Source of the DNA: a virus
Taxonomy: Duplodnaviria > Heunggongvirae > Uroviricota > Caudoviricetes
DNA length: 64,000 nucleotides
Reading direction: 5' to 3' (one strand)
IMG/VR virus record: IMGVR_UViG_3300029615_000411
Span: 119,874 to 183,873 of that record
Position numbers and translations under genes: made by a program. Positions 2,541 to 25,406 of the stretch are shown here, in pieces. A model generated the notes under the pieces. It searched no databases and was not told where the DNA came from. It worked only from the letters and a program-made list of their open reading frames with translations. The stretch's first letter is position 1. Each line of letters starts with the position of its first letter.

Positions 2541-2566
2541 ATTTTCGATTTCCTCCTTTTTGGGAA

Positions 2567-3598
2567 TCAGGTGTTTGCAAAATTCGGATTCTTCCAAATC
2601 AACTTATTCCCGTAATAGACTTCGGGAATGTACTTGATGGGAATTCTGCGATTGTCTTCGAGTTGCGAATCGTTGTTCGCGATAAACTCCTCGATGCGAT
2701 TTTCTTCACTGCGCGGGGTGATGTTGCAAGTCGAGAAACCTCCACCGTACAGGATATCACTGTTCATCATACCTTTGACCGGATACTTTACTTCGGTCGT
2801 TTTACCGTTGATGTTCAGGACAAGGCGAACGGTTTCGTATTGCTTATATTGCTTAGCAAGTTCCACAAGAAGCCTGAACATGATTTCCTGAGTGTTCGGA
2901 CTATTGTACTTTCTCATATACTCTTCCGTCAACTCTTCCACCACAGCCAATGTAATCCCGTATAGGCGTCCAGACCGCCCGGAATTTGCCTTTTTGATTT
3001 TCTCCATCGTCCGTTCAGCCCAGCCGGTGGGATTAGCAAGATAATCCACTACCAGTTCATCGGCATTTGTGGATGTCAGGCCAAAGCAAGACCCGTTTCC
3101 AATCTCATCGACAATGCTGTCAATAGGGCTGCGATAATTCTTATACCCCTTTATTATGCGACAGAAAGCGTTCTGCCGTGCTATCTTGTCGTAATGACTG
3201 CCCTTGAGAATTTTCTTGTCTTCTTCCGTCACATTCTCTCGGAACATATCGAACAGCTTCTGTGCCATTTCCTCTATGACAGAATCCGAGGTAAAAGAAG
3301 AACGGCAGAAAATCGTTTTGAAGTCCTGTGTTTCATTGACGGTTTTGGCATTGTCGACAACGAGGCAAAGGAAGCGTATCTCTTGGTTGAATGTTACGGG
3401 TTTCTTTTCCAAGATTCCATAAAACCGCTGCCCGTACAAGGCATCTACCTTGTGCTCGCCATTGGCGAGCGGCACACGAATGAAACGGTAGTAGCGCCCG
3501 GACGGTTTTCCGGTATCGGGAATTGTGTTGCCTTCGAACACGGATGCGCCGGATTTGATAGCCTGCTCAAAATCCTCACGAGTTAAATTGATAGTCAT
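2567..3598 (-). CDS. hypothetical protein (about 343 aa)
   Basis: ORF 2567..3649; ATG 3598 (MTINLTREDF) with GAAAGGAAG RBS. Confidence 0.5.
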   Translation of the reverse strand: MTINLTREDFEQAIKSGASVFEGNTIPDTGKPSGRYYRFIRVPLANGEHKVDALYGQRFYGILEKKPVTFNQEIRFLCLVVDNAKTVNETQDFKTIFCRSSFTSDSVIEEMAQKLFDMFRENVTEEDKKILKGSHYDKIARQNAFCRIIKGYKNYRSPIDSIVDEIGNGSCFGLTSTNADELVVDYLANPTGWAERTMEKIKKANSGRSGRLYGITLAVVEELTEEYMRKYNSPNTQEIMFRLLVELAKQYKQYETVRLVLNINGKTTEVKYPVKGMMNSDILYGGGFSTCNITPRSEENRIEEFIANNDSQLEDNRRIPIKYIPEVYYGNKLIWKNPNFANT

Positions 3599-3627
3599 AA
3601 TTTCTTCCTTTCTGTTTTTATTATTTT

Positions 3628-4392
3628 TTAGCTGTTTTCTTCGATGCACAATTTGCTGCTACGAATGTTTTCCAACCATTTTTCATCCATAACATTGCCA
3701 ATACGATACTTCCTCTGGGATTCATAGGACCAGTCACAACCGACGACAGCATCACCGATGGCATTCAGATACAGTTCTCCATCAGTGATATTGATTCCGG
3801 CTTCATTTCTCGGTTTACAATCTCTCTCATATTCAATCACAAGTTCCGAAACTATAGGTTCTCTCTTTAGAATCTGATTTGCGTTGATAGTTTTGGCACG
3901 ACCCTCGTTAATGAGATATTGCTTGCGAAAATCCGTTACTTTATCATTACGATTATATCTCAAACCGCTAAGAATACTCGCACTTTCGCGGGGAATTTCT
4001 TCATGAAAATCATCGCTGCTGATACAAAGACCACACGAATAGTCATCCTTGTCATCGCAATAATTCCACCATTCGAGGCTCGCCAAAGCGAGTTCTACCA
4101 TCTTATCGACGGCTTTCCCGTTGGTTACCATATAAAAACTCCCAACGGAAATGTTTCGCTCTCTTACGGCGTTCAAAGTATAGCGGATAGCAGGAATATT
4201 CAAAGAAATCTCTCCACCCGTGAAGGTCAAGGAACTGATGTATCCTGCATTAGCAAAACTGTCAAGAAACGCATCGATATACTTTTCCTGAATATCGACC
4301 GCCTCCGCATCACCGCGTAAACAATGCGCACAGCACATATTGCAGCGACGCGTAACCTCGATTACCACATTACAAGCGTTTGAAATATACAT
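3628..4392 (-). CDS. radical SAM enzyme (CX3CX2C plus GGE motif) with extra C-terminal cysteines, possible auxiliary Fe-S (twitch/SPASM-like)
   Basis: RRCNMCCAHC = CxxxCxxC; TFTGGEISL SAM-binding motif; 5 further Cys in C-terminal half; AAAGGAG RBS before ATG 4392. Confidence 0.65.
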   Translation of the reverse strand: MYISNACNVVIEVTRRCNMCCAHCLRGDAEAVDIQEKYIDAFLDSFANAGYISSLTFTGGEISLNIPAIRYTLNAVRERNISVGSFYMVTNGKAVDKMVELALASLEWWNYCDDKDDYSCGLCISSDDFHEEIPRESASILSGLRYNRNDKVTDFRKQYLINEGRAKTINANQILKREPIVSELVIEYERDCKPRNEAGINITDGELYLNAIGDAVVGCDWSYESQRKYRIGNVMDEKWLENIRSSKLCIEENS

Positions 4393-4406
4393 CCTATTTA
4401 CTCCTT

Positions 4407-4718
4407 TCACCAATTCTCGTCCGCAAAGCTCTCATTGCGGTCAACGATGATATCCACATCCAGTGGTGTAATTTTACCCAGACCGTAATTCAAGAAGAAC
4501 GAGCCGGGAATGTCATCGACATCGCCCCAGTTCCAGCAACCACAGTTAATTTCAAGCTGTCGTTTGCCTTCGTCCGTCTTGAGATAATCTTTGATTGCGC
4601 CGCGCAGGACGCTTTCCGGGTCATGGATTTGCTCCGGATTATAGCTAAACTGAATCAGTGTGCATTCCACTGCACGGTCAACAATCTCATTAGCAACAAT
4701 TGTAAAAACCTTTGTCAT
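4407..4718 (-). CDS. hypothetical protein (about 103 aa)
   Basis: GAGGAGG RBS before ATG 4718 (MTKVFTIV...). Confidence 0.45.
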   Translation of the reverse strand: MTKVFTIVANEIVDRAVECTLIQFSYNPEQIHDPESVLRGAIKDYLKTDEGKRQLEINCGCWNWGDVDDIPGSFFLNYGLGKITPLDVDIIVDRNESFADENW

Positions 4719-4740
4719 AGTAATCCTCCTCAATAAACAG

Positions 4741-5196
4741 TCAGGCACAACGAACGCGAATGACATTATCATCATTCGACAAGCAAACAATCACGTCCAC
4801 ATCCGGTCCCTCTTTCTCAAGAGCACCTTCAAGGATTGGCTTGATTTTGTGCCATTGATTTTCTGTGATTTTACAGCCGGGGCTCATAAGCAGAATATTT
4901 GCTTCGGCCAGCTTTGCTTTCATGACCACTTGTAGGAAACAACCGTATAAGTATCCGTAATTCACCTTGTTATTTTCAAGACAAATCATATCTGCTATTA
5001 CGGTCCTTTTATTACCATAGCAGTTCACAACATGTCCCAAGTGATGTTCAGATTTGTCATACCGTACCTTGGCATCCGGAAACATGCTTTCAATAGATTC
5101 GTTTTTGAAAACACCACTGCTATCACAAAAAACACAAACGATATTTTTGCCGGGAAACTCCTGACTTGATAAACAGCTTTTTGTCTTTTTTATCAA
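4741..5196 (-). CDS. hypothetical protein (151 aa); start uncertain (TTG at 5196)
   Basis: ORF track; sits downstream of class I promoter B and a leader hairpin. Confidence 0.4.
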   Translation of the reverse strand: MIKKTKSCLSSQEFPGKNIVCVFCDSSGVFKNESIESMFPDAKVRYDKSEHHLGHVVNCYGNKRTVIADMICLENNKVNYGYLYGCFLQVVMKAKLAEANILLMSPGCKITENQWHKIKPILEGALEKEGPDVDVIVCLSNDDNVIRVRCA

Positions 5197-5222
5197 TTTT
5201 TCTTCATCATCCTTTCGGCGAT

Positions 5223-5261
5223 AACAAAAAATACCGCCACCTCTTACGAGATAGCGGTATG
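5223..5261 (-). terminator. leader hairpin plus T-tract downstream of promoter B (ATACCGC...GCGGTAT TTTTTTG)
   Basis: 7-bp stem, 16-nt loop, T6. Confidence 0.4.
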
Positions 5262-5302
5262 TTGATTTTGAATTGTAATTGTATTTTATCTATCGAATAT
5301 AC

Positions 5303-5334
5303 TTAGTATATCGATTTTGCAGCAATTTGCAAGC
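5303..5334 (-). promoter_or_regulatory. class I promoter B (TTGCAA-ATTGCTGCAAAATCGA-TATACT)
   Basis: Conserved TTGCAAATTGCTGCAAA core. Confidence 0.45.
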
Positions 5335-5389
5335 GCAGCTATTTAGTGGCGCTTCAACTTTTTCCGGGGGTTTTATTTTTTCGCTTTAC

Positions 5390-6187
5390 TTACAGCAAAC
5401 TCATCTCTGCACGATACGCATTGGCGTCGTAGCCCCAGATATTACAAGCAAAATCGATTGCTGCGTTACCTTTGCTGGGATAACCGTCGTCAACAAAATC
5501 TCCTTTGCAAAGCGCATACCAGCCACAATTACTTCCGATATCCTCATCCGCGTATTTTACACGAATATTGGCGTGTGGAAATTTACGGCTCAGTTCGACA
5601 ATGGCGCATGCAGGTGTATTCCAAGGGGTTTTAAAATTGATGGCAATTTTCGTATCATTTATTCTACGGATATTCACATCAAAAACATCCCACTTTACGC
5701 CCCAGTTTGCGACACGCCAATAATACCATGAAGCATATCCATATTTTACGGCATTTTCCAAAGCACGCTCCGCTACAGTATCGAACTCTTCGACATTATA
5801 GGGGATACGTTTCAGGTTGATGAGTTTGCTATCTTTCACATGTTCCAGTTTGGAGCGAGCTTCCGCAGCTTCCTTGCAAACACCAACCATATCTGATGCA
5901 GTAAGTTTTTCCTTCCTGTGCAGGAGAAAAGTTTCTCTGCAAATAGCCTTTCTTACGTTTTCCGGATACTTCTCCGGGTCAATTCCATATTTATTTACGG
6001 CCGCCCATGCGAGCATCCTGTCACATGGCGATACGATTTGCAGTGATTCCGGCATAGGAACAACAGACTGAAGCGAAAAATCTTTTTCGCCATCATCGTC
6101 TTTTCCCTTGACACGATTCAGAAAATCCTCCAACTCTGACTGAGAATTGAAAGAAACAGACATGATATTCATGATATTGTTTGCCAT
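5390..6187 (-). CDS. hypothetical protein (265 aa)
   Basis: ATG 6187 with AAGGAG RBS at 7 nt spacing. Confidence 0.5.
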   Translation of the reverse strand: MANNIMNIMSVSFNSQSELEDFLNRVKGKDDDGEKDFSLQSVVPMPESLQIVSPCDRMLAWAAVNKYGIDPEKYPENVRKAICRETFLLHRKEKLTASDMVGVCKEAAEARSKLEHVKDSKLINLKRIPYNVEEFDTVAERALENAVKYGYASWYYWRVANWGVKWDVFDVNIRRINDTKIAINFKTPWNTPACAIVELSRKFPHANIRVKYADEDIGSNCGWYALCKGDFVDDGYPSKGNAAIDFACNIWGYDANAYRAEMSLL

Positions 6188-6204
6188 TTATTTTCTCCTT
6201 TGTC

Positions 6205-6393
6205 TTACGCGGGTACGCGTACGCAAGAATAGTGGCAAGCTCCACAATTCAGGAACTTTGCCCGCTTCATCGCCTCATCCAAGCTGAACCGCGTCGCTTC
6301 GTTAATGTTGGCAGTATCACTCTTACACTCTACGTAAAAACGCACATCTCCAAAAAACGGGTCTTTACGGCTTAGCGCATACATATTTTCCAA
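6205..6393 (-). CDS. small Cys-containing hypothetical protein (62 aa), TTG start
   Basis: GAGGAGG RBS 6 nt before TTG 6393. Confidence 0.4.
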   Translation of the reverse strand: MENMYALSRKDPFFGDVRFYVECKSDTANINEATRFSLDEAMKRAKFLNCGACHYSCVRVPA

Positions 6394-6405
6394 AATAAGT
6401 CCTCC

Positions 6406-7146
6406 TCAAATGTATCTCTCCCAGAACTTTTCGAATTCCTCGCTCGGCATCTGTGCTTCCGTTTCATCCAACAGTCTTTCGTAAGAATCACTGGAAACAT
6501 CGGTGCCAATAAAATCGGCAACGGCATCATGACCGCGCTGCATCAAGGCGTCTTTCAGAATCGCCCAACGACATTCGTGAATGGCATCATCCAGCGTTTT
6601 GTTGCCATCAGGCTGCCAATACTCGCCTGTCTGCTGAATTCTATAAAACTCATCCAGCGCATCATCAACATTGTTTTCGAGAAGAATATCGTCAATAAAA
6701 TTGACAGGATAATCCTTGCCGTTGATTTCCACTTCTGCATAACTGAAACAGTCGTCGTCACACGGCATTGCTGCACAGGTGACATCGAAAATTTCGTGCG
6801 TTTCCTTGTTTACCTTGCAAGGCAACTGGAATGTTGCTCCGGACTCGAAGTAAGAAAAGACAACCGCTTCCTCAACATCGTTGTCGGGGCATTTCGCAGA
6901 CTGGATGAATTCCGGCATAGACAGCACATCAATACTCTCTCTTCGGTCGCCCATGGCAGGATAAACCTTCATGATTGTATAACCATCATGCTGCAGCTTT
7001 CGGATAGCACGGCACAGGTCGAGATGCATTTCATGAAGACTGATGCCACTACCTCGTCCGTCTTTTTTGGTATAGATTTCGACAACTACATCTTCAGAGG
7101 TTGTCTGAACAACATAATAAGTCTTATCATTACAAATCTTAAACAT
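6406..7146 (-). CDS. hypothetical acidic protein (about 246 aa)
   Basis: ATG 7146 (MFKICNDK) with AGGGAG RBS. Confidence 0.5.
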   Translation of the reverse strand: MFKICNDKTYYVVQTTSEDVVVEIYTKKDGRGSGISLHEMHLDLCRAIRKLQHDGYTIMKVYPAMGDRRESIDVLSMPEFIQSAKCPDNDVEEAVVFSYFESGATFQLPCKVNKETHEIFDVTCAAMPCDDDCFSYAEVEINGKDYPVNFIDDILLENNVDDALDEFYRIQQTGEYWQPDGNKTLDDAIHECRWAILKDALMQRGHDAVADFIGTDVSSDSYERLLDETEAQMPSEEFEKFWERYI

Positions 7147-7167
7147 AGCACTTATCTCCCTTCTCAA

Positions 7168-7365
7168 TCAAACAAAAGCCAGAAAATCGTTGGCCGGAAT
7201 CTGTCGCTGGGCATCGTAAGCGGTGCCGTAGACATCATCACCCCAACTGATTTGCACATCCTTCGTCCACAGAGCAAGCTCAGACATTTTTGCTGCCACG
7301 GCTTTTGCGGAGCTGCAGATATACTTCTTGACGGCGTTGTTTTCTTTTACGTTAATTGTAAACAT
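7168..7365 (-). CDS. small hypothetical protein (about 65 aa)
   Basis: AAGGAGG 8 nt before ATG 7365; the longer track ORF overlaps a terminator hairpin. Confidence 0.45.
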   Translation of the reverse strand: MFTINVKENNAVKKYICSSAKAVAAKMSELALWTKDVQISWGDDVYGTAYDAQRQIPANDFLAFV

Positions 7366-9851: not shown

Positions 9852-10451
9852 TTATTCTTTGTTATCCGAAGGAATTTTCGGAGACTTCTTCTTCTCAACG
9901 AAAGCATCAATCGTTCGGCCGAAACGATTAAGAAGCATTGCGCCAAGATAAAGAATGATGCCGCTAATCATGATACCAACATCAAGCGTCTCAAATCCTG
10001 CGAAACTCTTGCAATAAATAGAACTGACTGCGAGAGCGCCAAGCGTTGGCAGCGAAGCAATCGTTACCGTAAGTGCCGCATACACAACACTATTCAGAAC
10101 AGTACCAATACTTGCAATGATGCCGCGCTTTTTAAAAGTGCGCTGCTTATCGTAGGACATCTGATAAGCCCCGATAAGACTTGGTTCACGAATAATGTCG
10201 CGCAGATGCAGCAGGCACCACGCCAAAACAGCACACCCGATGCCGCAGCCGACCTTATAGGCACTCATGCGAGAACCCCACAGGTCATTTGCGTTGGCGG
10301 GAACGACGAACGCCAGAATGTTGAACAGGACGGCAAACAAGACGAACATTGCCATGTGGGGATTCTTGGCAGTGTTGCGAGCCTCGTTCTTTGCCTTACT
10401 GGCGACTTCCTCGGTCTGATTGTGAATTTTTACATTGAGAATCTTTTCCAT
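9852..10451 (-). CDS. integral membrane protein (about 4 TM)
   Basis: Hydrophobic segments; ATG 10451; strong terminator follows. Confidence 0.5.
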   Translation of the reverse strand: MEKILNVKIHNQTEEVASKAKNEARNTAKNPHMAMFVLFAVLFNILAFVVPANANDLWGSRMSAYKVGCGIGCAVLAWCLLHLRDIIREPSLIGAYQMSYDKQRTFKKRGIIASIGTVLNSVVYAALTVTIASLPTLGALAVSSIYCKSFAGFETLDVGIMISGIILYLGAMLLNRFGRTIDAFVEKKKSPKIPSDNKE

Positions 10452-10496: not shown

Positions 10497-10814
10497 TTAA
10501 TCTCTGTGATAGCGTTGCATCATACCGAACATAGCCGCAAGCGCCAATGCAAGGTAGATGTAAGTGTATCCCTTTTCAATCATGTTCAGAATCACGATGG
10601 TAAAGCTCGAAAAAGCACCACAATAAAAAGCGGCACCAAGTTTATCGACCAAAAACATCAACATCTGGGCAACGACTGCCGCAGGAACAAGAAGCTTGAG
10701 ACGCTTGGCCTCAATGATTCCGTCCCAGTCAAGAACAGCAATGAAGCTGGCTCCCATGCAGATGACCCAAACAAAAGCGAAAATAAGGGTTGCTGTGTCA
10801 AAAAAGTTACTCAT
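10497..10814 (-). CDS. small 3-TM membrane protein, paralog A; holin-like topology, function unproven
   Basis: GGAGG 8 nt before ATG 10814; about 50% identical to the next gene; ends KRYHR. Confidence 0.45.
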   Translation of the reverse strand: MSNFFDTATLIFAFVWVICMGASFIAVLDWDGIIEAKRLKLLVPAAVVAQMLMFLVDKLGAAFYCGAFSSFTIVILNMIEKGYTYIYLALALAAMFGMMQRYHRD

Positions 10815-10869
10815 ATCAGTTACCTCCAAAATTACTGATGGTTTACGGGTTTATGGACATCGAATCGCA

Positions 10870-11184
10870 TTATCTGTGATAGCGCTTTGTCATGCCAAAC
10901 ATAGCTGCAACCATAATCGCCAAATATGCGTACAAATACAAGTTCTCAATCATTCCAAGAACTGAAATTGTAAGGCTGGCGAACATACCGCAATACAGAA
11001 CAGCACCAATTTTTTTGATGATGAACAGCGTGGCTTGCGCAATGATGGCGACAACGAGAAAAACTTTGATGTATTTAGCCTCAAATAAACCATCCCAATC
11101 GATGGCAAGGAAGATACAAGCCCCCACAGCGAGAGCCCAAACCAAAGCAGCAACAGATGCAACAGCGTCAAAGAAGCTTAACAT
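10870..11184 (-). CDS. small 3-TM membrane protein, paralog B (tandem duplicate)
   Basis: GGAGG 8 nt before ATG 11184; DWDG, AKxxK and MFGMxxRYHR conserved with paralog A. Confidence 0.45.
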   Translation of the reverse strand: MLSFFDAVASVAALVWALAVGACIFLAIDWDGLFEAKYIKVFLVVAIIAQATLFIIKKIGAVLYCGMFASLTISVLGMIENLYLYAYLAIMVAAMFGMTKRYHR

Positions 11185-11237
11185 AGCGAATACCTCCATG
11201 TTTTAAATAGGTTAATGTTCGGACATCTATATAAACA

Positions 11238-11273
11238 GCAAAAAGCCGCCAATGGGACAATCCACTGGCGGCT
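11238..11273 (-). terminator. hairpin plus T-tract after sortase operon / promoter E (GCCGCCAGTGG...CCATTGGCGGC TTTTTG)
   Basis: GC-rich stem plus T5. Confidence 0.55.
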
Positions 11274-11324
11274 CAGTTGCCGATTGCAATAATACAGTTA
11301 AATCATTTGATTTATGTTATGTCT

Positions 11325-11362: not shown

Positions 11363-12334
11363 TCAGAAGACTTCGTCAAGTTTTGCACATACAATAAAAC
11401 GAGTATCGTAATTATCACTGCCTGAACAGGTGGACAAAATCAAAACCTTATCATTCAATCCAACTTCTGTGGCATACTGATTGTAAGAGTAAGCTTTCAT
11501 ACTTGCAATCTCTGTCAGGAAATACGAATCATCCGGATTCGCAATGGTATAACTTGGGTCAATAGGATAATCGGCAACAGCAAAGATTTTCCATCGTGTC
11601 TGTTGTTCACCCAAAGTAAGATAAATATACCGATGTTCCTTTGCAAAGTTGACATCGCGGAAGTATTTCAAAACACTGAATTTCTTGTGCATACTGTTTC
11701 CGTTGCTATGTCCAAAAATAACAGTTACTCTGTACATGTCATCAACATTGCTGACATTCCATTCGGAGGGAACAAAATAAGCGCCCCAGATACTTTCCCT
11801 ATCGAACTCATTGTGAGTCAGGTAATAATCATCGTCTGTGGGATGCTGCAAAATGGGCTCATCTGTAACATCAACGCCGGGAACGGTTAAGTAACCAACG
11901 GTGTTTTTGGAATACGCTGGCTTTGGTGTCGGTTCCGGTTCTGAATCACTCTCACTTGAATTAGAAGACGGGATAAGAATCGAGGGAGTAGAAACGGGTT
12001 CTTCTACATCGTCGGAGATGTTTCCTGTCTCATATGCAGGGATATGATAGTAATCATACGTCTTCCATCCAATATAGCCAATCATGGCAATAAGAACGAT
12101 GCAGATTACGACCAACAAAACTGTCCAGATGGAAAATCGCCGTTTCTCTTTGTCCTCTGACGCGTCCATCGCATCCATCGATTCATTGTCATCCTCGTCA
12201 TGACTTGCCTTTTGATGAGGGAAGTTTTCACCAGTTCCATCATCCTCATCATTTGGAATGTAATTGTACGCACCAAGTTCCTGCTCGAAATGTTCTTCTT
12301 CAGGCAGTGGTGGAATAATAGGTGTTTTTGCCAT
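11363..12334 (-). CDS. sortase family transpeptidase, class-B-like, N-terminal TM anchor
   Basis: Catalytic LILSTC motif, His in TVIFGHS, conserved Arg in TRFIV; TM RRFSIWTVLLVVICIVLIAMIGYIGW; last gene of the secY operon. Confidence 0.75.
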   Translation of the reverse strand: MAKTPIIPPLPEEEHFEQELGAYNYIPNDEDDGTGENFPHQKASHDEDDNESMDAMDASEDKEKRRFSIWTVLLVVICIVLIAMIGYIGWKTYDYYHIPAYETGNISDDVEEPVSTPSILIPSSNSSESDSEPEPTPKPAYSKNTVGYLTVPGVDVTDEPILQHPTDDDYYLTHNEFDRESIWGAYFVPSEWNVSNVDDMYRVTVIFGHSNGNSMHKKFSVLKYFRDVNFAKEHRYIYLTLGEQQTRWKIFAVADYPIDPSYTIANPDDSYFLTEIASMKAYSYNQYATEVGLNDKVLILSTCSGSDNYDTRFIVCAKLDEVF

Positions 12335-12345: not shown

Positions 12346-13509
12346 TTATTCAGCTGCGGCAGACCGCTCGTACACATCAATGCAGTAGTTGCCCATAATC
12401 TTGTTGTACATGCACTCCTGTGCCAAAGGACCTGCCCCATAGGTATCAACGGCGTTATCATAGTTACTGCCAATATAAGCTTTCACTTCATCGACAGACG
12501 GTTTATAGTCCTGTTCCTCTGCCAGATACTGCGCAACAAGGCTCAGTAAAACATTTTCTTCCGTCTGACTACGAAGACTTTCTGAATACTCCTCCGAGGT
12601 CTTATAATTGCTGTATGTCTGAACGAATGTCTCCAAGTCCATATTGTAGGCAGTTGCTTCGTTTTCGACATACTTCAAGTTGGTTTCAAGACTCAGGATG
12701 ACAAGGTCTGTCGTATCCTTTTTGAGTTTTACATTGTCAATGAAATACTGTTCAATCTCATTCTGAATCTTATTCATACGAAGATTCTCTTCAACATATT
12801 CACGAAGCAGGTCTACTGTAGTTACAGCAGTGCCGTCTTGCAGCTTGTAGCCACTCATGATACCGGCAACATCAGCATCTGTCATGCTATATTGAGAAAT
12901 TTTATTAAGCGTTACATGGAAAACAGCTTCCTTGTTGGCGAGTTCGATAGTCTGCTCGCCTGTAGTTCTATCTGTTGTACTGCTATATCCATCAGGGAAT
13001 GTTACCGTAACATCAAACGAATCCCCCGTGTTATGCCCGACGATTTGCTCTTCAAATCCGTCAATAAAGGTATTGGAACCGAGTTCCAAATCGTAGTCTT
13101 CTGTTGTTCCACCGGTAAAAGCAACACCATCAACCGTACCCTCATAGTCAATGTTCACAACATCGCCTTCCTGTGCGGCGCGGTCTGTTACCTCTGTCGT
13201 CAGCTTGTAATTGGACTGAAAATAATCCAACTCGCTTTGAATCTCCTCGTCTGTAACGGCGTATACATCTTTGCTGACCGTATACTTCTTATAATCCTTG
13301 GGCATCTTTATGTATTTGGACGCAGTCACATCACGAAAATACCCGTCATCATCAAGACCGAGGTCATACTCAACAGCGGAAGCTGTTTCGGAGGTGGCTG
13401 TTTCCGCAGTCTCAGATGCACTTGTATCGGCCGTATCTTTACTGCACGCGGTCAATGCAATACATGCAGCACTGATGACCGCCAGAATCATTTTTGCGTT
13501 TTTCTTCAT
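12346..13509 (-). CDS. lipoprotein with FKBP-type PPIase / trigger-factor-like domain; candidate extracytoplasmic foldase
   Basis: MKKNAKMILAVISAACIALTAC signal plus lipobox; GDVVNIDYEGTVDGVAFTGGT...LELGSNTFIDGFEEQIVGH is the trigger-factor/FKBP PPIase signature; AAAGGAG RBS. Confidence 0.65.
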   Translation of the reverse strand: MKKNAKMILAVISAACIALTACSKDTADTSASETAETATSETASAVEYDLGLDDDGYFRDVTASKYIKMPKDYKKYTVSKDVYAVTDEEIQSELDYFQSNYKLTTEVTDRAAQEGDVVNIDYEGTVDGVAFTGGTTEDYDLELGSNTFIDGFEEQIVGHNTGDSFDVTVTFPDGYSSTTDRTTGEQTIELANKEAVFHVTLNKISQYSMTDADVAGIMSGYKLQDGTAVTTVDLLREYVEENLRMNKIQNEIEQYFIDNVKLKKDTTDLVILSLETNLKYVENEATAYNMDLETFVQTYSNYKTSEEYSESLRSQTEENVLLSLVAQYLAEEQDYKPSVDEVKAYIGSNYDNAVDTYGAGPLAQECMYNKIMGNYCIDVYERSAAAE

Positions 13510-13565
13510 GAAAATCTCCTTTATAAAAAGACCCCGGCAGACAGGTTGCCTACCGGGGCAGTATT

Positions 13566-13817
13566 TTAAACGAACAGGAACGGAACGTGAAGCAACAGAG
13601 CGTATGCCGCATCCATAATGCCAATAATAACGGCGGATACAGCACTCACAACAAGAACTGCTCCAGTTCGATGGAGCGTGTTGTGCATACTCGGCCAAGT
13701 CACATTTTTGGGTGCAACCAAATTGTGAAGCTTCTTAGGCGTGCTCTTGACGAAAGAAGGAATTGCCTTCACGAAATTCGCAATAGCCGTTCCTACCTTT
13801 TTCAGTTTATCTTTCAT
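13566..13817 (-). CDS. secE: SecE-like preprotein translocase subunit (accessory copy)
   Basis: KNVTWPSMHNTLHRTGAVLVVSAVSAVIIGIMDAAYALL parallels SecE KKVxWPxxKE...T.VV..V....D; ATGA overlap with upstream secG-like gene. Confidence 0.55.
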   Translation of the reverse strand: MKDKLKKVGTAIANFVKAIPSFVKSTPKKLHNLVAPKNVTWPSMHNTLHRTGAVLVVSAVSAVIIGIMDAAYALLLHVPFLFV

Positions 13818-14068
13818 GCCGCACCTCCTACTCCGGTTACTACGAACATGATGATTGCGATAACAAGCAGAATAGCTGTACATACAGCAACCAGTTTATT
13901 TGCGGACGTTTTCGTGCTGTCTTTAGCATTCGAGCGCATTGTATCACTGATTCCGGTGATAACACTAAGACTGTTCTTGTCGGCCTTATCCATGGAAAGC
14001 GTAACCGCACAAACCAGAACAGAAACCAACAGAATCAAGATGCACAGAATGATTTCATAAATTGCCAT
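13814..14068 (-). CDS. secG: SecG-like translocase subunit (accessory copy)
   Basis: 84 aa, two TM with Gly/Ser-containing loop (LSVITGISDTMRSN...) as in SecG; immediately downstream of secY, translationally coupled to secE-like. Confidence 0.45.
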   Translation of the reverse strand: MAIYEIILCILILLVSVLVCAVTLSMDKADKNSLSVITGISDTMRSNAKDSTKTSANKLVAVCTAILLVIAIIMFVVTGVGGAA

Positions 14069-14083: not shown

Positions 14084-15424
14084 TCAATTCAAGAAACCCT
14101 TGTGATGGCGAACCACCAAATGGCTGTTAAGAGAATCGATAACTTCAAGCGTAACACCTGTGACAATCAACAGACTGGTACCGCCAAAGTGCATGTTCAG
14201 ACCTGTAACCGCAGTTGCCAAGATAGGCACACATGCAATAACCGAAAGAACAAATGCTCCCGAACCGGCGAGAGAATGGCAAGCATTGCGCAAATAATCA
14301 CTGGTAGCTTTGCCTGCTCGAATACCGGGGATACTGCCGCCGTTCTTGCGCAGGTTGTTTGCCATTTCGATGGGGTCGAATGTGATGTCGATGTAGAATA
14401 AGTTGAATGCGAAAATCAGGGCTACATACGCAACATCATAAATCCAATTCCGCGAATTCCAAGATGCCAGCGCCATATACAGGCTGGGGTGCTTGTTGTA
14501 ATCGAGGAACATCGTCACGAGAGACGGCATACTGCAAATGGTGGACGAGAAAATAATAGGCATAACACCCGACATAATCAGTTTGATGGGGATATAACTG
14601 GACTGACCAGTGGATGCTTTGTTCCCCACATTTTTACCGGCATACTGAACAGGAACGCGGCGCTCTGCATCGCTTGCGAAAACGACATAGAAGGTGGCCG
14701 CCAAAACAAAGAGGATGACGCCGGGAATCATCAGATAATACCACCATCCATTTTCTTTGCCCATTGCAATAGAGTTCTGGAACAACGAGATGACAGCATC
14801 CCATCTGGAAATGATACCGATAAAGATGATAAGGGAAATACCGTTGCCAATACCTTTTTCGTCAATCAGCCATCCAAGCCAGATGACGATTTGAGAACCA
14901 GCAGTCAGAATGGCAATAACAGTAATGGCTTCCACGACCTGCGAAATGCCGGAAGTGTATTTCATCGCACCGTAGTTCTTCATAATAAAGAAGTACCCGA
15001 TAGCTGTTACGACCGCCAAACCACAACCAACATACTGCGTGATTTTATTGATTTGCTTCTGCCCGCCGATGTCCTTGCTGATTTCTTCCAGTTTCGGAAT
15101 CGCAACAGTCAAAAGCTGGATGATGATGCTTGCGTTGATGTATGCAGATACGCCAATCGCAAATACCGCACACTGAGAAAGTGCGCCACCGGAAACCAGA
15201 TTGTAATAATCCAGTACAGAGGTGCTTCCGAACATAGTCTGAAGCGCAGCGGTGTTTACGAACGGAATCGTAATACCGCAACCCAGACGATAAATCAGAA
15301 GACAAAGGATGGTGAAGAGAATCTTGTTGCGAACATCATCCACCATCAGCTTCTGGAAGATGGTGCTGTTCGAATAAGACTTTTTGAGTTTCGGCTTTTT
15401 CGCCGGATTTTTAATGTTGTCCAA
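14084..15424 (-). CDS. secY: SecY family protein-conducting channel, second non-ribosomal-context copy (SecY2-like)
   Basis: GITIPFV, SQIVIWLGWLIDEKGIGNGISLIIF, VPVQYAGK, YIPIKLIMSGVMPIIFSSTI, NLRKNGGSIPGIRAGKATSDYL, FGGTSLLIVTGVTLEV; TTG start with GGAAGGAG RBS; no rplO/adk/map neighbours. Confidence 0.85.
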   Translation of the reverse strand: MDNIKNPAKKPKLKKSYSNSTIFQKLMVDDVRNKILFTILCLLIYRLGCGITIPFVNTAALQTMFGSTSVLDYYNLVSGGALSQCAVFAIGVSAYINASIIIQLLTVAIPKLEEISKDIGGQKQINKITQYVGCGLAVVTAIGYFFIMKNYGAMKYTSGISQVVEAITVIAILTAGSQIVIWLGWLIDEKGIGNGISLIIFIGIISRWDAVISLFQNSIAMGKENGWWYYLMIPGVILFVLAATFYVVFASDAERRVPVQYAGKNVGNKASTGQSSYIPIKLIMSGVMPIIFSSTICSMPSLVTMFLDYNKHPSLYMALASWNSRNWIYDVAYVALIFAFNLFYIDITFDPIEMANNLRKNGGSIPGIRAGKATSDYLRNACHSLAGSGAFVLSVIACVPILATAVTGLNMHFGGTSLLIVTGVTLEVIDSLNSHLVVRHHKGFLN

Positions 15425-15448: not shown

Positions 15449-15724
15449 TTATCGAGCAAAGAAAGCAACGATGATTCGCATCAGAAAGGCTACAACGGCC
15501 AACTTCGTTGCAAGCCACATGAACCAATCGAGTTTGTCGATACCTTCGTCGAATACATTTGTTGCGGCAGCATCTTTTTTGTTACTGTCGCAATCCCCGT
15601 CAACATGGTTTTTCTTGATTTTGTTGCGATTAAGCACAAACAAAGTTCGAAACAAAGCCCATGTTGCAATACAGAATCCGTATACGATTAGAAGCTCGAT
15701 ACAGAAACTGTGCAAAGACGACAT
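15449..15724 (-). CDS. small 2-TM membrane protein; possible extra translocon subunit
   Basis: 91 aa, two hydrophobic helices; TAATG overlap with upstream gene; directly precedes secY. Confidence 0.4.
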   Translation of the reverse strand: MSSLHSFCIELLIVYGFCIATWALFRTLFVLNRNKIKKNHVDGDCDSNKKDAAATNVFDEGIDKLDWFMWLATKLAVVAFLMRIIVAFFAR

Positions 15725-16401
15725 TAAGCGGATGCGCCGTTGGCGTCAGGAGTCGTATTGGAGGCGGTCTCGGCAACGGCCTCTACCGGAGTTTCCGTGA
15801 CAGTCTCTGCAGGAGAAGTGATATCCCCGGTGATTGTGGGGACGTTGGCATCTTCTGCGACCGACTCATTGACGGGCGCTTCAATAACCGCATCCTTGAC
15901 TCCATCAGCAGTCACTTTCTTTGCTGCGATTTTTGCGAAGTGCTCATTGCGCTTTTCACGGCAAGCCTTGCAGCGGGTGGGGAACTTGTAGTCATGGACG
16001 ACATACCAGTACAGCTCGCGATTGGTAAACTGCAGCTTCTGACCGCAATCTGCGCAGGTGTCTTCCAGACCGATGTTATCCAGCCCGCGCTTCACGAAGT
16101 CGCGATGAATTTTGCGGCATTCCGGGCAGCGGTTCGGCAGAGAATAACCGTGACTCTCGAAGAAATCGCGGTCACGATTGGTGATGTCGAATTCATGACC
16201 GCAGTCAACGCACTTGCGGGTCTCAAACACCTCATTGCTCTTTGCATCAGCTTCCTTGCGAGCTTCATCCTCTGCGCGGCGTTTTGCGAAATCGTCACGC
16301 ATACGACACTCGCGGCACAGCACCTCGCTCTCATTGGCGGTGCTGAACGGCTTGTTGCACTTCTCACAGGTCTTGCGGAACTTCTTTGCTGCATCTTTCA
16401 T
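15724..16401 (-). CDS. zinc-ribbon protein with five CxxC...CxxC units and acidic tail
   Basis: CEKCNKPF..CREC, CVDCGHEF, CPECRK, CADCGQK, CKACREK. Confidence 0.5.
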   Translation of the reverse strand: MKDAAKKFRKTCEKCNKPFSTANESEVLCRECRMRDDFAKRRAEDEARKEADAKSNEVFETRKCVDCGHEFDITNRDRDFFESHGYSLPNRCPECRKIHRDFVKRGLDNIGLEDTCADCGQKLQFTNRELYWYVVHDYKFPTRCKACREKRNEHFAKIAAKKVTADGVKDAVIEAPVNESVAEDANVPTITGDITSPAETVTETPVEAVAETASNTTPDANGASA

Positions 16402-16444
16402 GGTTTAAGTCTCCTTTATGGTAAAAAATTAAAATAATGATTGA

Positions 16445-16960
16445 TTAGGCGTTGGGACCAGAAAAAGAATCGATAATTTCATCGATGTGGACGTTCAAGT
16501 CGGACTTGTCATCATCTTTCTTGGCGGGCTGTTTTACAGGAACAACGATATCAGGCTCATTCTTCTTTTCCTCCGCCGCCTTTTCTTCAACAGGCTTCTC
16601 TGCGGATTCATCCTTGGCCTCAGTGACCTCGGACGCGCTATCGGAATCCACCTTGCCGGATTCATCCTTATCGGCATCAGGATTCGCCTCGGTTGCCTTA
16701 TCAGTATCCTTTTTCGTCTCATCATGCTTGCGTTCTACGCGGATGACATGAACGGCAGCCACGGGCGCGTGATGAATATCATCGATGCGCTCATCACAAC
16801 CGCAGCACTCATCACAGTCATCACAATCGTCGTCATCATAAAGATAACCGTCATCCTCCAACTCTTTGATGACCTCGTTCTTCACATACTTGGTCGTGAG
16901 TTTCAGGGCAACGGCTGCAACAGTGGCGGCACCAATAACGGACAGAATGTTCTTCTTCAT
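16445..16960 (-). CDS. secreted or membrane-anchored acidic protein with poly-Asp/Cys cluster (DDDDCDDCDECCGCDE)
   Basis: N-terminal signal/TM MKKNILSVIGAATVAAVALKL; first gene after class II promoter P1. Confidence 0.5.
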   Translation of the reverse strand: MKKNILSVIGAATVAAVALKLTTKYVKNEVIKELEDDGYLYDDDDCDDCDECCGCDERIDDIHHAPVAAVHVIRVERKHDETKKDTDKATEANPDADKDESGKVDSDSASEVTEAKDESAEKPVEEKAAEEKKNEPDIVVPVKQPAKKDDDKSDLNVHIDEIIDSFSGPNA

Positions 16961-17004
16961 AAATTTCTCCTTTGACTAAAAAGCAATGTTTCGCTTGGAA
17001 TGTT

Positions 17005-17036
17005 TATATTATACCACATAAATATAATGTGGTCAA
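17005..17036 (-). promoter_or_regulatory. class II promoter P1 (TTGACC-17-TGgTATAATATA) for the secY-sortase operon
   Basis: Reverse complement TTGACCacattatatttatgtggTATAATata; spacer palindrome ACCACATaaatataaATGTGGT. Confidence 0.5.
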
Positions 17037-17048
17037 TACAAATTGCGA

Positions 17049-17080
17049 ATAAAAAAATGCCCCGCCGAAGCAGGGCATGT
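17049..17080 (-). terminator. intrinsic terminator after gene 17098..17751 (ATGCCC...GGGCAT TTTTTTT)
   Basis: aaaaaaatgccccgccgaagcagggcat read on minus strand. Confidence 0.55.
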
Positions 17081-17097
17081 GAAATATCAGAAGTGCC

Positions 17098-17751
17098 TTA
17101 TCGAATACCGTATCCCATATCTTGTCGCACGAGTTTTATTTCTGAAGTGTTTTTCAAACTATCGGGGAACATTTCTTTAGCGTAATCCTGATAGCGTTTC
17201 GTAACATACTTTACGCCGAGTTCTTCCGGTTTGATATCTGCTGCGGTTTTTCTGATACGTTGATTCGATGCGCGAGAAGAACATTTCTTGCATAAGCAAA
17301 GCGCGACATTAGAAATGCCTTCATTCCCGCAGACGGCGCATTTTGCATGCGTCTTATCTCTATCCCATTCCTTTATTTCTTTTCCGTTTTCCGGGTCTAT
17401 TACAAGGCGGTTGCGCTTACAGCGGCGCACATAGAACACGCTTTGGCAGCAGGCAACGCATAAGCCTAAATCTTTGCGGTAGTGAGAAGAGAGACCATCT
17501 GTGACTTCACCGCACAAAAGGCATTTATTTTGAGAAACAATATTCTTGTACTTATTAGCCTTGTTCTCTAATAGCTTTTTTATGATTTCACCGGTCTTAT
17601 CGGGTTCAGGAGGATACGCATCCCATCCGTTTACAGGAAAAAAGCTGGAAAAGTCGTTCCATTCATCATCAGAAAACGAACAGCCAACAGGTTTGAGTAT
17701 CTTAGGGAGTTTATTGGACCATACTTTTTCTGCATTAGACTTCTTCGGCAT
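17098..17751 (-). CDS. Cys-rich (multi CxxC) hypothetical protein
   Basis: AAGGAGGAG RBS before ATG 17751; CLLCGE, CVACC, CAVCGNEG, CLCKKC. Confidence 0.5.
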   Translation of the reverse strand: MPKKSNAEKVWSNKLPKILKPVGCSFSDDEWNDFSSFFPVNGWDAYPPEPDKTGEIIKKLLENKANKYKNIVSQNKCLLCGEVTDGLSSHYRKDLGLCVACCQSVFYVRRCKRNRLVIDPENGKEIKEWDRDKTHAKCAVCGNEGISNVALCLCKKCSSRASNQRIRKTAADIKPEELGVKYVTKRYQDYAKEMFPDSLKNTSEIKLVRQDMGYGIR

Positions 17752-17782
17752 ACAGGCTCCTCCTTTGGAAGGAGTGACAGAA

Positions 17783-19207
17783 TCAATATTCTGCCACGAT
17801 GTTATCATCGGGTTTCTTCTTTATCAAAGAGTCCCCAAATCGATTTACATGTTCTTTCGGCGGTTCAATGACCTCGATGTCGGTATCCTCCACTTTTTCG
17901 ATTTCGTCAGAGGAATCGTCGTCTTTTTCATTCTGAACCTTATCCGATGGATTGGTGATTTGTGCATCCTCTTTTGCAACATCTGAAAGCAAATCAAATG
18001 TCAACTGAGAATTTGAGGACGCTGGTTTCTTTTCTCTTTTCTTGGTTGTTTGGCGTTTTTTGGAAGTTCTTTTTGACTTTACAGGTTCATTGGAACCACC
18101 ATCGCTTGTTTTTGCACTTGCTGTGTTTGAATCAGCAACCGCATCCGCTGAAGCCTTATCCTTGTTTGTTTCTGTGACGGGTTCCTGAACCTTTTTGTTT
18201 TTTGATAAATCATCTTTGTCGGATTGTTTTGATTCCAAAGCAGAAGACTCTTGTGCGTTTGAACCTTGTTCTTCTTGCACAACAGATTCTTCCTTTACTG
18301 GAATCTTAGCAGTTCCCTTCTGCAAAAGACCGTCGATTGCTACAACGGCCTCAGACTTCTTTTCTTCGGACTCTGCCTTCTGTACTGCACGGCGAATCGC
18401 CTCGGTTTTTTCTTTCTTTTCTTTTTCTGCTGATGCGGTATTTTCGCTTTCCTTTATCTCAGCAGGCACATTCATGTCAGATTTCGAATTCCACCACTTC
18501 TCAATAGTAGTAATCGTTCTTTCTACTAATATTATACCACAAAATTTGTGGTTTGACAACTTACGGCTCGGCACAAAGCATACAATACCGCACAGAGAAA
18601 CAACCAGTAAAACAATAGCAAGTCCTGCATCAAAAATAAAACAGATAAACGACACCGGAATCAGCAGCTCGCAGATACCGCGCATGATAAATACTGTTTT
18701 ATCTCCTTGGTCTTTTCGGTTTTGCATAAAACTGTCTCTCCCCTTCTGCGGGTGATAAGACAAACCACTTGACAAGCCGTTTGTTGCCCAATCACAAGGT
18801 ATCTCGTAAGTCTTTTCTCCTAAGCTGTCTGTGTACTGAATTACAGCAATATCAAAATACTCACCATTCTTCTGTGATGCCAAGAATGCGCGTAAGAATT
18901 CATTTCCAACAGACCGCGCAGGAACAATAATCGTTTCGATGCCGTCAGAATCTTTTGCGGCAATATCTACTACATAGGTATCATCTTCACCGCGCCATAC
19001 GTTCTGCACAATACCGCGCACCAATATACCGCGCTTATGAACACGCCTTCCCATAAAAGTAAAGGAGTTTTCAGAATACCACGTGTTTACCATGCAATAC
19101 GCAGCAATAATAAGCAATGTAAGGTACTTAACATTTATGGAGATAATGCTTAAAGAAAAAATATACGGAACGAGCATCAGCAAGACGAATGATACAAAGC
19201 TATTCAC
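17783..19207 (-). CDS. membrane protein with long K/E/S-rich disordered C-terminal half; contains an internal consensus promoter
   Basis: GTG start overlapping upstream TGA; TM helices in N-terminal half; low-complexity acidic/lysine tail. Confidence 0.45.
18529..18560 (-). promoter_or_regulatory. class II promoter P2 inside the 474-aa ORF (TTGTCA-17-TATAAT, extended -10)
   Basis: Reverse complement TTGTCAaaccacaaattttgtggTATAATatt; perfect palindrome ACCACAAA/TTTGTGGT in spacer. Confidence 0.45.
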
Positions 19208-19878
19208 TTTGAATCACCGCCTTCGCCAAATCCGTCCAAAAAGACAAGATTTTCTTTTGTGTGTTTCTTTTTTTGTTCAATAACTTCTTTTTCAGCTTCT
19301 TGTTTGACTTTATCGTACGCTTCCAACGGGCTCATGGAAGGTACTGATTTCTGCGTATCAGCAGGGACAATAGTATCATCGTTTTTGACGGCTGTCGTTA
19401 CACGACTGCAGGTTACGAGATTTCTGTCATTAAACGCAGTTACGCCATCCTCATTTGATTTAAAAATAAAGTCATACATAGCACCAACGAAGAAAGAGTT
19501 TTTAACGTTTTTCTTTGATTCGTTGACGCTGAGGAAAAAATCGTATTTTCCGTTTTTGTCGATAAACTCTCCATCCTCATTGACAGGGATGATTCGATAG
19601 GTTGAAATCTGCTGGCGAATCATATTTTTGCTGGACTCATCGGATACAACAATTCCCTTAACAGTCTTATACCGTTCATTTTTTTCATCATTATGAATCT
19701 CATAAATTTGAAAAATAAAATAAGCGGCGCACATCAAGCCGATAAGAAGAATCTTCCACTCCTGCATTACAACAACACCGAAAATAGAAGCAATCAAGAA
19801 CAGAATAGCGATAAGCCCATTCTTCACATACATAGATGTGATAAGAGATTTGCAATCCGGATGATAAATCTTAGACAT
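19204..19878 (-). CDS. membrane protein (2 TM near N-terminus)
   Basis: ATG 19878 after AAGGCGGTG. Confidence 0.45.
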
Positions 19879-19879
19879 T

Positions 19880-20866
19880 TTATTCACCGCCTTCTACGTT
19901 AGAATCTTTATCTGCGCTGTTTGTCGTACTGGCAGACTGTAAAATGCTTGCACCCTGCTCATTCAGAACATCCTCGATTGTCTTGTCGCGTAGTTTAATG
20001 CTGGACAAGACGACATCGTAAGACTCCCCAGACGAAGTAGTTACCCGTGCGATATATTGAATGGTCGTATCCCCCGCAAGCAATGCGCCATCTATTGTTT
20101 GCTTCTGACGATTTCCGTCCTTATCTTCGGTCTCAACCACATACATATCCTGTGACGCTTTTTGTGCAGATACAGAAGACGTCATAACAATATCTCCGGC
20201 CTTCATATCAGAGGTCGCGAACTTGTTTACGATAGAACCTGTTCTATCCACAAAGAACACGGGAGTATCCTGCTGCATCTTCCCGTCGCCGTCTACGAAA
20301 TGCGAACCGCATAAGGATTCGTATTCGTTGACACTCAAAGTCTTATAGCTGAGTTCTGAATCCTCGATGGTATCCCCGGAAGGAATATCCACATTTACGA
20401 CAGCAACTTTATATTCTCCGGTAAGCTGTCCACTGATTTGGACCCAGTTTGTGTATACGAAGAAGCCAATAGCGATGGCGACAACGGCAACAATGAACAT
20501 TGCGATACCGATATTACGCTTGTTATTGTTTTTAATGATTTGTGCCTGTTCTAGGATTTCCTTACTGGCATGCTTAGTATCTTTAAGCGTCTGGTTTGCT
20601 TCATCCAGTGTATCGCTTGTCTTTGTAAGCACTTCGTAAGCTTTGGTCTCTCTATGGCCGACATTCACATTCAGCCCTTTTGCGCCATTGTTGTTGGCAG
20701 ACTTTGCGTTGTTGTATTCGGCGCGAAGCGTTTCCACAACGGAATCGTCAAGCGTCATCTGTTCCCCGTTAGGCAGAATTACCGTACCATCATCATAGAC
20801 ATCGAAAACACGTTCCTTGCCTTCATACATGGCGCGTACCTGACCGATAACATAATGTTCGTTCAT
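19880..20866 (-). CDS. bitopic membrane protein, possible SAF/CpaB-like extracytoplasmic domain
   Basis: AAGGGGTG RBS before ATG 20866; TM IGIAMFIVAVVAIAIGFFVY; VAVVNVDIPSGDTIEDSEL resembles SAF domain. Confidence 0.4.
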   Translation of the reverse strand: MNEHYVIGQVRAMYEGKERVFDVYDDGTVILPNGEQMTLDDSVVETLRAEYNNAKSANNNGAKGLNVNVGHRETKAYEVLTKTSDTLDEANQTLKDTKHASKEILEQAQIIKNNNKRNIGIAMFIVAVVAIAIGFFVYTNWVQISGQLTGEYKVAVVNVDIPSGDTIEDSELSYKTLSVNEYESLCGSHFVDGDGKMQQDTPVFFVDRTGSIVNKFATSDMKAGDIVMTSSVSAQKASQDMYVVETEDKDGNRQKQTIDGALLAGDTTIQYIARVTTSSGESYDVVLSSIKLRDKTIEDVLNEQGASILQSASTTNSADKDSNVEGGE

Positions 20867-20880
20867 GTTTATCACACCCC

Positions 20881-21375: not shown

Positions 21376-21391
21376 AATCTGTACCTCTTAT

Positions 21392-22893: not shown

Positions 22894-22919
22894 AAATCGC
22901 TCCCCCTAATGTACAGTAA

Positions 22920-25395: not shown

Positions 25396-25406
25396 AGGAG
25401 TTATTT

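Follow-up and report, generated by a model that had tools for sequence, protein, structure and literature searches.

The 64,000-nucleotide stretch analysed here (the window; positions 119,874 to 183,873 of IMG/VR record IMGVR_UViG_3300029615_000411) is a portion of a G2 "Hodor" conjugative megaplasmid, an element of ~346 kb from human-gut Bacillota. It encodes a class B sortase (SrtB; 323 aa, 11363–12334, minus strand) and two giant surface proteins: one of ~2650 aa, referred to below as the 2.6k protein (35992–43944, minus strand), and a fibrillar-adhesin-like protein of 6542 codons, the larger giant, whose N-terminus lies beyond the window end (44372–64000, minus strand). The best reading of the sequences pairs SrtB with the giants and suggests that both are probably anchored by this enzyme.

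The module to which these genes belong has already been published for the Hodors, and the present finding is an independent rediscovery, because the cluster of SecY, SecG, SecE, trigger factor (TF) and SrtB and the two giants are already described by Yuan et al. (bioRxiv Feb 2026, PMC12934698; cited throughout from its main text). The motif comparison, the argument for class B type, the placing of the terminators, the recognition of the TF-like protein as a lipoprotein and the relatives from outside the human gut go beyond that main text.

The class B sortase

The sequence-only reading had placed the active site of a sortase in the segments LILSTC, IFGHS and TRFIV of this ORF, behind an N-terminal transmembrane (TM) anchor, and both assignments were borne out. 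The catalytic triad consists of His209 (IFGHS), Cys303 (LILSTC) and Arg312 (TRFIV). These residues, as well as S301 and T302, were invariant in an alignment of 29 homologues (22–96% identity), and the triad aligned with those of C. perfringens and B. anthracis SrtB. The protein begins with an acidic cytoplasmic extension (residues 1–67; 20 Asp/Glu vs. 6 Lys/Arg, net charge −14), which differs among the relatives in the alignment, and continues with a TM helix (~68–91), a Ser/Glu/Pro-rich linker and the catalytic domain (~140–323). In an AlphaFold2 model (mean pLDDT 78, >90 across most of the catalytic domain), the TM helix spans residues 69–96 and a helix at 269–282 occupies the β6/β7 region, which is a class B trait. 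On the sequence and the predicted structure, the ORF is a genuine membrane-anchored (type II) sortase with an intact His-Cys-Arg triad.

The class of the enzyme was evaluated with hidden Markov models (HMMs), PDB searches and structural comparison. Only two NCBIfam models matched, both of them for class B sortases, the second being an LPKTxAVK-specific SrtB model. The best match, TIGR03064 (sortase_srtB), aligned end to end (E = 5.7e-22), yet its 78.2 bits lie far under the equivalog cutoff of 153.75; the sortase is, as judged by these models, a divergent branch of class B. Pfam gave no match at E ≤ 0.01, PF04203 (Sortase) included; relatives at 37–55% identity do have precomputed PF04203 matches. 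All eight chains that a phmmer search of the PDB returned were SrtB (5b23 of C. perfringens at 5e-12, and also Listeria, C. difficile and S. aureus), with alignments that pair IFGHS with VYGHN, LILSTC with LTLITC and TRFIV with ARIVV. Furthermore, with a profile built from the 29-homologue alignment, 15 of 15 PDB matches at E ≤ 0.01 were SrtB, the best being that of B. anthracis (1.1e-44).

Structural comparison gave the same class. The first 19 ranks of a Foldseek search against the PDB were SrtB (E 2e-15 to 2.5e-11; target TM-score 0.66–0.85), and class A, C and E enzymes began at 2e-7, ~10^4-fold weaker. The search gave 125 matches at E ≤ 1e-3; among the 50 matches listed, all were sortases, which places the model with the eight-stranded β-barrel fold of the sortase superfamily (MEROPS C60). 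In addition, the nearest plasmid homologues carry the PGAP label "class B sortase". Taken from sequence and model, the enzyme belongs to class B and not to the housekeeping class A; the class B likeness proposed earlier from the letters alone therefore stands.

A published model of B. anthracis SrtB has S231 in contact with the P4 Asn of the sorting signal, and S301 is the equivalent residue here. The β7/β8 loop carries the acidic residues D307 and D310 where the published model puts the partner of the P2 Lys. As contacts for P4 Asn and P2 Lys, S301 and D307/D310 are suggestive only.

The giant proteins and their sorting signals

The ORF of the 2.6k protein is open from 35992 to 44007 (minus strand; 2671 codons), with ATG at 43944 as the likeliest start. 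The protein has a signal peptide (MQKPRKRFLSAIVAVAMCLSQFAPVTAYA|VES), MBG (YGX) domains and a C-terminal sorting signal (35992–36159, minus strand) within the sequence ...VVNYKTGVGFGADIIVPVIVVVALIGVGAFVIVKKKKGD..., in which the motif is followed by a 20-residue hydrophobic helix and a charged tail (NYKTG-VGFGAD-IIVPVIVVVALIGVGAFVIV-KKKKGDSEE...). The larger giant ends in the same manner: its signal (44372–44524, minus strand), within ...TSNKKTGIGFAQSIVGLVAMVGIGVAALVVVNHKRKKDEN..., reads NKKTG-IGFAQS-IVGLVAMVGIGVAALVVV-NHKRKKDEN..., again with a hydrophobic helix and a charged tail. In IMG/VR contigs that are 96–97% identical, the start of its gene lies ~800 codons further upstream and the protein reaches ~7,320 aa. 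Its signal peptide (MQKGKTWQRVASAVLAVMMTMSTFSSTIAYA|AEP) is seen only in these relatives, because the window end cuts the gene. The C-terminal half contains 22 CLIPPER (DUF11) and 20 CLIPPER_2 (DUF7507) matched stretches, with MBG (YGX) domains N-terminal to the CLIPPER part. CLIPPER domains are CnaA-like isopeptide-bond domains that build the stalks of fibrillar adhesins, and an adhesin would be expected to have such a stalk adjoining its wall anchor.

The earlier description of both C-termini as N(Y/K)KTG(V/I)GF followed by a hydrophobic helix and a Lys-rich tail proved correct. N.KTG occurs once in each giant, at the sorting signal, against composition expectations of 0.29 and 0.09 anywhere in the protein. 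Both signals combine the motif with a spacer of ~6 residues, a helix of 20–24 residues and an immediate K/R cluster, and the cytoplasmic tails are of 21–31 aa and mixed charge. Among all window ORFs of at least 60 aa, no other credible ending with motif, TM helix and basic tail was found. C-terminal domains of the exosortase, archaeosortase and rhombosortase (CTERM) type were considered and rejected, as the only match, to Loki-CTERM, was sub-threshold and driven by the helix. The long charged tails, of 21–24 aa, follow stop-transfer clusters, KKKK in the 2.6k protein and HKRKK in the larger giant (35992–36063 and 44372–44434). It is conceivable that the acidic N-extension of the sortase interacts with these tails on the cytoplasmic side.

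The motif was then compared across lineages. The larger giant carries NKKTGIGF in both G2 (the window) and G1, the 2.6k protein carries NYKTGVGF in G2 and QAPTGVGL in G1, and giant fragments of a third lineage carry DPSKTGVG(V/L). Peptides that represent the motif are PVVVNYKTGVGFG and FTSNKKTGIGFAQ, and the G1 peptide is VAAQAPTGVGLS. T-G-[V/I]-G was invariant in all of these lineages and was preceded by K or P, with varying flanking residues. On these sequences, the conserved core is x-x-[K/P]-T-G-[V/I]-G, and the Asn is not universal. Hence N-x-K-T-G, which the sequence-only reading had put forward as the sorting motif, is present in both window giants but is not the conserved part, as QAPTG in the G1 2.6k protein and PSKTG in the chicken-gut lineage indicate. 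The third-lineage fragments come from a CLIPPER adhesin of 52–59% identity and end in DPSKTGVG, a helix and SRKKK. One of them is from a chicken-gut metagenome, and relatives of the giants thus exist beyond the human-gut and wastewater sources given in the preprint (PMC12934698). The PSKTG tail scored 18.0 with Rumino_NPXTG (NF033846), vs. a cutoff of 23.5.

Published class B signals include NPKTG (B. anthracis), NAKTN, NKVTN and NPKSS (Listeria), (S/P)PxTG and NVQTG (C. difficile), and (E/Q/V)(V/P)PTG (S. pyogenes Spy0129). Compared as sequences, NYKTG, NKKTG, QAPTG and PSKTG all fall inside this variability. NYKTG and NKKTG share the P4 Asn, the P2 Lys and the P1 Thr followed by Gly with B. 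anthracis NPKTG and lack the P3 Pro; a residue other than Pro at P3 has precedents in NAKTN, NKVTN and NVQTG. The motif had been called unusual, which is true only in a relative sense given NAKTN, NKVTN, NVQTG, (S/P)PxTG and (E/Q/V)(V/P)PTG.

Several further features adjoin the giants. An acidic lipoprotein with the lipobox FVGC (35156–35863, minus strand) is encoded directly downstream of the 2.6k gene, is kept in G1 and probably belongs to the giant-protein operon. A 401-aa exported protein (33124–34329, minus strand) has a signal peptide and a C-terminal TM anchor and no TG motif. On the 346-kb contig, immediately upstream of the giant gene and outside the window (5945–7324 in the compared region), lies the gene for a 459-aa lipoprotein. 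Its repeated VATVD-containing segments are possibly Ig-like, and the protein may add one more component to the surface module. The GC content of the giant-protein genes is 49.5% (35900–64000) vs. 44.4% for the rest (1–35900), and the GC skew shifts at the same boundary.

Sec genes, foldase and the Hodor element

The gene 11 nt upstream of srtB encodes a TF-like FKBP peptidyl-prolyl isomerase (PPIase) of 387 aa (12346–13509, minus strand), identified by HMM and signal peptide. It starts with MKKNAKMILAVISAACIALTAC|S, a lipoprotein signal peptide with the lipobox LTAC, and aligns with trigger factor only from about residue 77–125 on, the ribosome-binding N-domain being missing. Because of this lipoprotein signal and the missing N-domain, the protein is probably an extracytoplasmic, surface-tethered foldase and not a cytosolic or ribosomal trigger factor. 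PrsA serves as a model for such action outside the membrane.

Further upstream, on the same strand, lie the genes for SecE (13566–13817; 83 aa as called on public contigs), a SecG-like small membrane protein (13814–14068; 84 aa), SecY (14084–15424; 446 aa) and a treble-clef zinc-finger protein (15724–16401; 225 aa). SecE was identified by HMM; the matches of the SecG-like protein were weak and below cutoff, and its name follows the preprint. The plasmid-borne SecY passed the canonical SecY equivalog model (330 bits, cutoff 253.6) and failed the SecY2 model (146 bits, cutoff 249.6), and no match to SecA, SecA2 included, or to Asp was found among the scanned window ORFs. The zinc-finger protein, which corresponds to the "hyp" of the preprint cluster, has repeated CxxC motifs and could serve the plasmid translocon as a targeting or regulatory factor in the cytoplasm. 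A 91-aa ORF is also found upstream of the sortase on the same strand, alongside the zinc-finger gene.

The sortase had been placed at the end of a secY operon, which does not agree with the positions of two terminator-like hairpins, each of 13 pairs (8 G-C) followed by a T-run. One (13531–13559, minus strand) lies between the secE stop and the start of the TF-like gene, and the other (11243–11274, minus strand) lies ~90 nt past the sortase stop. The two hairpins therefore suggest two transcription units, secYGE and TF-like plus srtB, with the second hairpin at the end of the latter. The metatranscriptome in the preprint agrees: TF and srtB are co-transcribed, secYGE is co-transcribed separately, and both giant genes are co-transcribed in one operon (PMC12934698). 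Just downstream of the sortase terminator are two tandem paralogous small membrane proteins of 109 and 110 aa (10497–10829 and 10870–11199, minus strand), 49% identical and without a family match. The next gene encodes a 199-aa multi-pass membrane protein (9852–10451).

The order zinc finger, SecY, SecG, SecE, TF, SrtB was kept in three sortase lineages (61–75% identity), with the zinc-finger gene upstream of secY in each. Moreover, the giants are co-inherited with the sortase in both G1 and G2. The linkage between sortase and giants is ~24 kb in G2 and ~9 kb in G1. In G1 the Sec/sortase cluster lies ~5.5 kb from the giant operon (1176–5740 on one G1 contig), and in the G2 window the two are separated by ~20 kb of other genes (16400–35990). 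These include genes for a ParM/Alp7A-like actin (24209–25318), a Dam methylase (29037–29555) and a flotillin/SPFH protein (31224–32759), and many of them are without a family match.

The third sortase lineage (61–69% identity) is found on ENA contigs of 128 and 72 kb that keep the Sec/sortase order. Its flanks differ (HNH, AAA_5, bactofilin, PspA), and it is neither clearly G1 nor G2. More distant sortase relatives occur on a 345,480-bp ENA contig and a 127-kb termite-gut contig, among genes for DNA polymerase III alpha, topoisomerase, lytic transglycosylase, sigma factor and RepB-primase. Such contigs, whose sortases are 38–47% identical, may be further megaplasmid families carrying the same sortase clade.

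The identity of the element follows from comparison with public contigs. The exact sortase sequence is present on 21 public human-gut metagenome contigs, the contigs in its 95%-identity cluster are 343–378 kb long, and a 345,980-bp IMG/VR contig (IMGVR_UViG_3300023499_000220) carries the sortase at 99% identity. A second IMG/VR group, with sortases of 74–75% identity and contigs of up to 389,222 bp, corresponds to G1 (for example IMGVR_UViG_3300045988_181067). The GC content of the non-giant part of the window is 44.4% vs. 44.6% for G2, and that of the 389-kb group is ~47.9% vs. 47.1% for G1.

Yuan et al. named these conjugative megaplasmids Hodors, divided them into groups G1 and G2 and reported that they had previously been mis-filed as huge phages. 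Their curated genomes have a mean length of 357 kb and originate from human gut and wastewater; Rep_3, partition genes (ParA/ParB/ParM) and conjugation genes (VirB4/VirD4/VirB6) serve as marks of a Hodor. In G1 and G2 alike, the class B sortase lies inside the hyp-SecY-SecG-SecE-trigger factor region, and the giants, of 7309–7704 aa and ~2642 aa, combine signal peptides and MBG domains with a wall-sorting signal (PMC12934698). The complete surface module, with the hyp-SecY-SecG-SecE-trigger factor-class B sortase cluster and both giants, was found at the studied locus, and there is no essential difference from the module of the preprint, which belongs to the same element family and has the same cluster, giants (>7300 and ~2640 aa) and two transcription units. 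Within the 64-kb window a ParM/Alp7A-like gene was seen, but no Rep_3, ParA/B or type IV secretion system genes, which are presumably elsewhere on the plasmid.

A huge-phage identity was rejected, as PHROGs matched only a partition protein and one unknown family and the preprint shows that the elements are plasmids (PMC12934698). A megablast search of 11 kb against annotated plasmids and phages gave no match, and the element is missing from both sets. Protein-mode searches gave only class B sortases of at most 34% identity, with uninformative neighbourhoods, and a scan of GTDB species-representative genomes gave just two distant chromosomal SrtB genes (27–32% identity).

Anchoring of the giants, alternatives and meaning

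In the mechanism that we propose from sequence and structural modelling, and consider reasonably likely, the giants would be exported via a translocon containing the plasmid SecYEG, and the lipid-anchored TF-like PPIase would aid their folding outside the membrane. The C-terminal helix would hold them in the membrane before sorting, and SrtB would cleave at Thr-Gly and attach them to the wall. The outcome would be isopeptide-stalk adhesins of 2,650 and ~7,300 aa, covalently bound to the wall. By analogy with the aggregation substances of plasmids, these adhesins would probably bring cells into contact and favour the transfer of the plasmid or colonisation of the host. A further proposal is that the plasmids, conjugative and of broad host range, carry a self-contained line for export, folding and anchoring, with their own SecYEG, a lipid-anchored extracytoplasmic TF-like PPIase and a divergent SrtB reading x-x-[K/P]-T-G-[V/I]-G-[F/L], that displays isopeptide-stalk adhesins of >7,000 aa without recourse to the secretion and sorting machinery of the host; this appears rather unlikely, though far from negligible. 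Under that proposal, the plasmid translocon or the long charged tails of the substrates might be docking sites for the acidic N-extension, or else the giants might be ligated to each other by the enzyme.

Several observations weigh against the pairing of SrtB with the giants. The preprint reports that every Hodor additionally encodes a class A sortase, which lies outside the window, and that G1 also encodes a class C sortase, and it leaves the sortase of the giants as "class A and/or B" (PMC12934698). For this reason the pairing is unproven, and the words "dedicated" and "co-evolved" in the sequence-only reading went too far. The curated sorting-domain HMMs gave no match to the NKKTG tail, and LPXTG_anchor (TIGR01167) scored 15.2 on the NYKTG tail vs. 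a cutoff of 15.9, over the helix only. The sortase itself stays below the TIGR03064 equivalog cutoff, and no Sec genes accompany its distant relatives (38–47% identity) on other large elements. Finally, the sortases of G1 and G2 share 75% identity and a nearly unchanged catalytic domain, and despite this the G1 2.6k motif differs from that of G2 at 3 of 5 positions.

The best-surviving alternative, which we regard as quite unlikely, is that another sortase (the plasmid class A, the G1 class C or a host enzyme) anchors the giants, and that SrtB serves other substrates or is redundant. The additional sortases and the wording of the preprint fit this explanation, but LPxTG is absent from the C-terminal signals of both giants, the sole LP.T[GASN] match lying ~380 residues upstream in the 2.6k protein, and the P4 Asn and P2 Lys are class B features. 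The replacement of NYKTG by QAPTG without a matching change in SrtB implies either that the enzyme is tolerant at P4–P2 or that another sortase serves the G1 2.6k protein; the confinement of class C to G1 fits the latter, but QAPTG resembles the (E/Q/V)(V/P)PTG signal of the class B enzyme Spy0129. No second sortase was detected in the window or in any other compared region around the module, using an active-site regular expression and Pfam on 38 window ORFs or ORF segments, and according to the preprint srtB and the giants are among the few genes common to both Hodor groups (PMC12934698). As an observation in its own right, the difference between NYKTG in G2 and QAPTG in G1, with a class C sortase in G1 only, may mean that the 2.6k protein has switched its sortase partner or that the class B enzyme tolerates variation at P4–P2.

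It is very unlikely that SrtB acts as a ligase or polymerase, linking the giants together, or to a further protein, by Lys isopeptide bonds in a pilus-like manner, instead of or before anchoring. By sequence and by structure, the enzyme comes closest to the anchoring SrtBs of Bacillus, Listeria, Clostridium and Staphylococcus, even though the pilus SrtBs of S. pyogenes and S. pneumoniae (3psq, 4y4q) are among the Foldseek matches. The two substrates are co-transcribed in one operon (PMC12934698), the stalk of CnaA-like isopeptide domains is of a kind found in pilins and adhesins, and G1 QAPTG is close to the pilin signal QVPTG; however, YPKN pilin motifs and E-boxes are absent from both giants, and a polymer of 7,000-aa subunits would be without precedent.

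That the C-terminal helices are plain uncleaved membrane anchors, with KTG(V/I)G kept for helix packing or translocon interaction, for example, is equally improbable: all curated C-terminal sorting-domain models score under their cutoffs and the cytoplasmic tails appear to us long for a wall-sorting signal, but motif, spacing, helix length and K/R cluster conform to the wall-sorting paradigm, T-G stays fixed in every lineage amid changing neighbours, and the sortase is co-inherited with the giants.

Anchoring of both giants by SrtB, the reading that we prefer, can be set against known class B systems. Operon-linked pairs of SrtB and substrate include S. aureus SrtB/IsdC (NPQTN), B. anthracis SrtB/IsdC (NPKTG) and L. 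monocytogenes SrtB/SvpA (NAKTN), and C. difficile SrtB signals are (S/P)PxTG and NVQTG. The Hodor enzyme shares with known SrtBs the fold, the triad, the β6/β7 helix and the gene linkage to presumed substrates, and its signals share the P4 Asn, a P2 Lys or Gln and the P1 Thr, a P3 residue other than Pro being precedented. In contrast, it is only 21–28% identical to known SrtBs and under the SrtB equivalog cutoff, carries the 67-residue acidic cytoplasmic extension, and is plasmid-borne and coupled to Sec genes. Its presumed substrates are giant adhesins, whereas those of known SrtBs are small NEAT haem-binding proteins, and in its signals P3 is Tyr or Lys and the scissile bond is followed by a conserved G-[V/I]-G-[F/L].

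The accessory Sec system (SecA2/SecY2/Asp) exports large serine-rich-repeat adhesins that are anchored by sortase. There, as in the Hodors, an extra SecY is encoded beside wall-anchored adhesins of very large size, which suggests an export route reserved for them. Unlike SecY2, however, the Hodor SecY is canonical (330 vs. 146 bits for SecY2) and is accompanied by SecE and SecG; the Hodors add a lipoprotein PPIase and a class B sortase, and their substrates are not serine-rich glycoproteins. Enterococcal conjugative plasmids of the PrgB/Asc10 type encode sortase-anchored aggregation substances of ~1,300 aa with LPxTG, which are handled by the class A sortase of the host. As in the Hodors, a conjugative plasmid encodes its own wall-anchored adhesin, a presumed aid to mating contact; no plasmid-borne translocon, foldase or sortase is known to be involved in those systems.

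It is biologically striking that a conjugative plasmid should come with a translocon, a foldase and a sortase of its own to display two bacterial surface proteins that are among the largest known, and this bears on the spread of gut megaplasmids and on the export of giant adhesins. The present analysis adds that the "trigger factor" of the module is a lipoprotein and so is probably active outside the membrane. It also adds a testable assignment of the class B enzyme to signals with a K/P-T-G-V/I-G core, for which the difference between NYKTG in G2 and QAPTG in G1 constitutes a natural specificity experiment.

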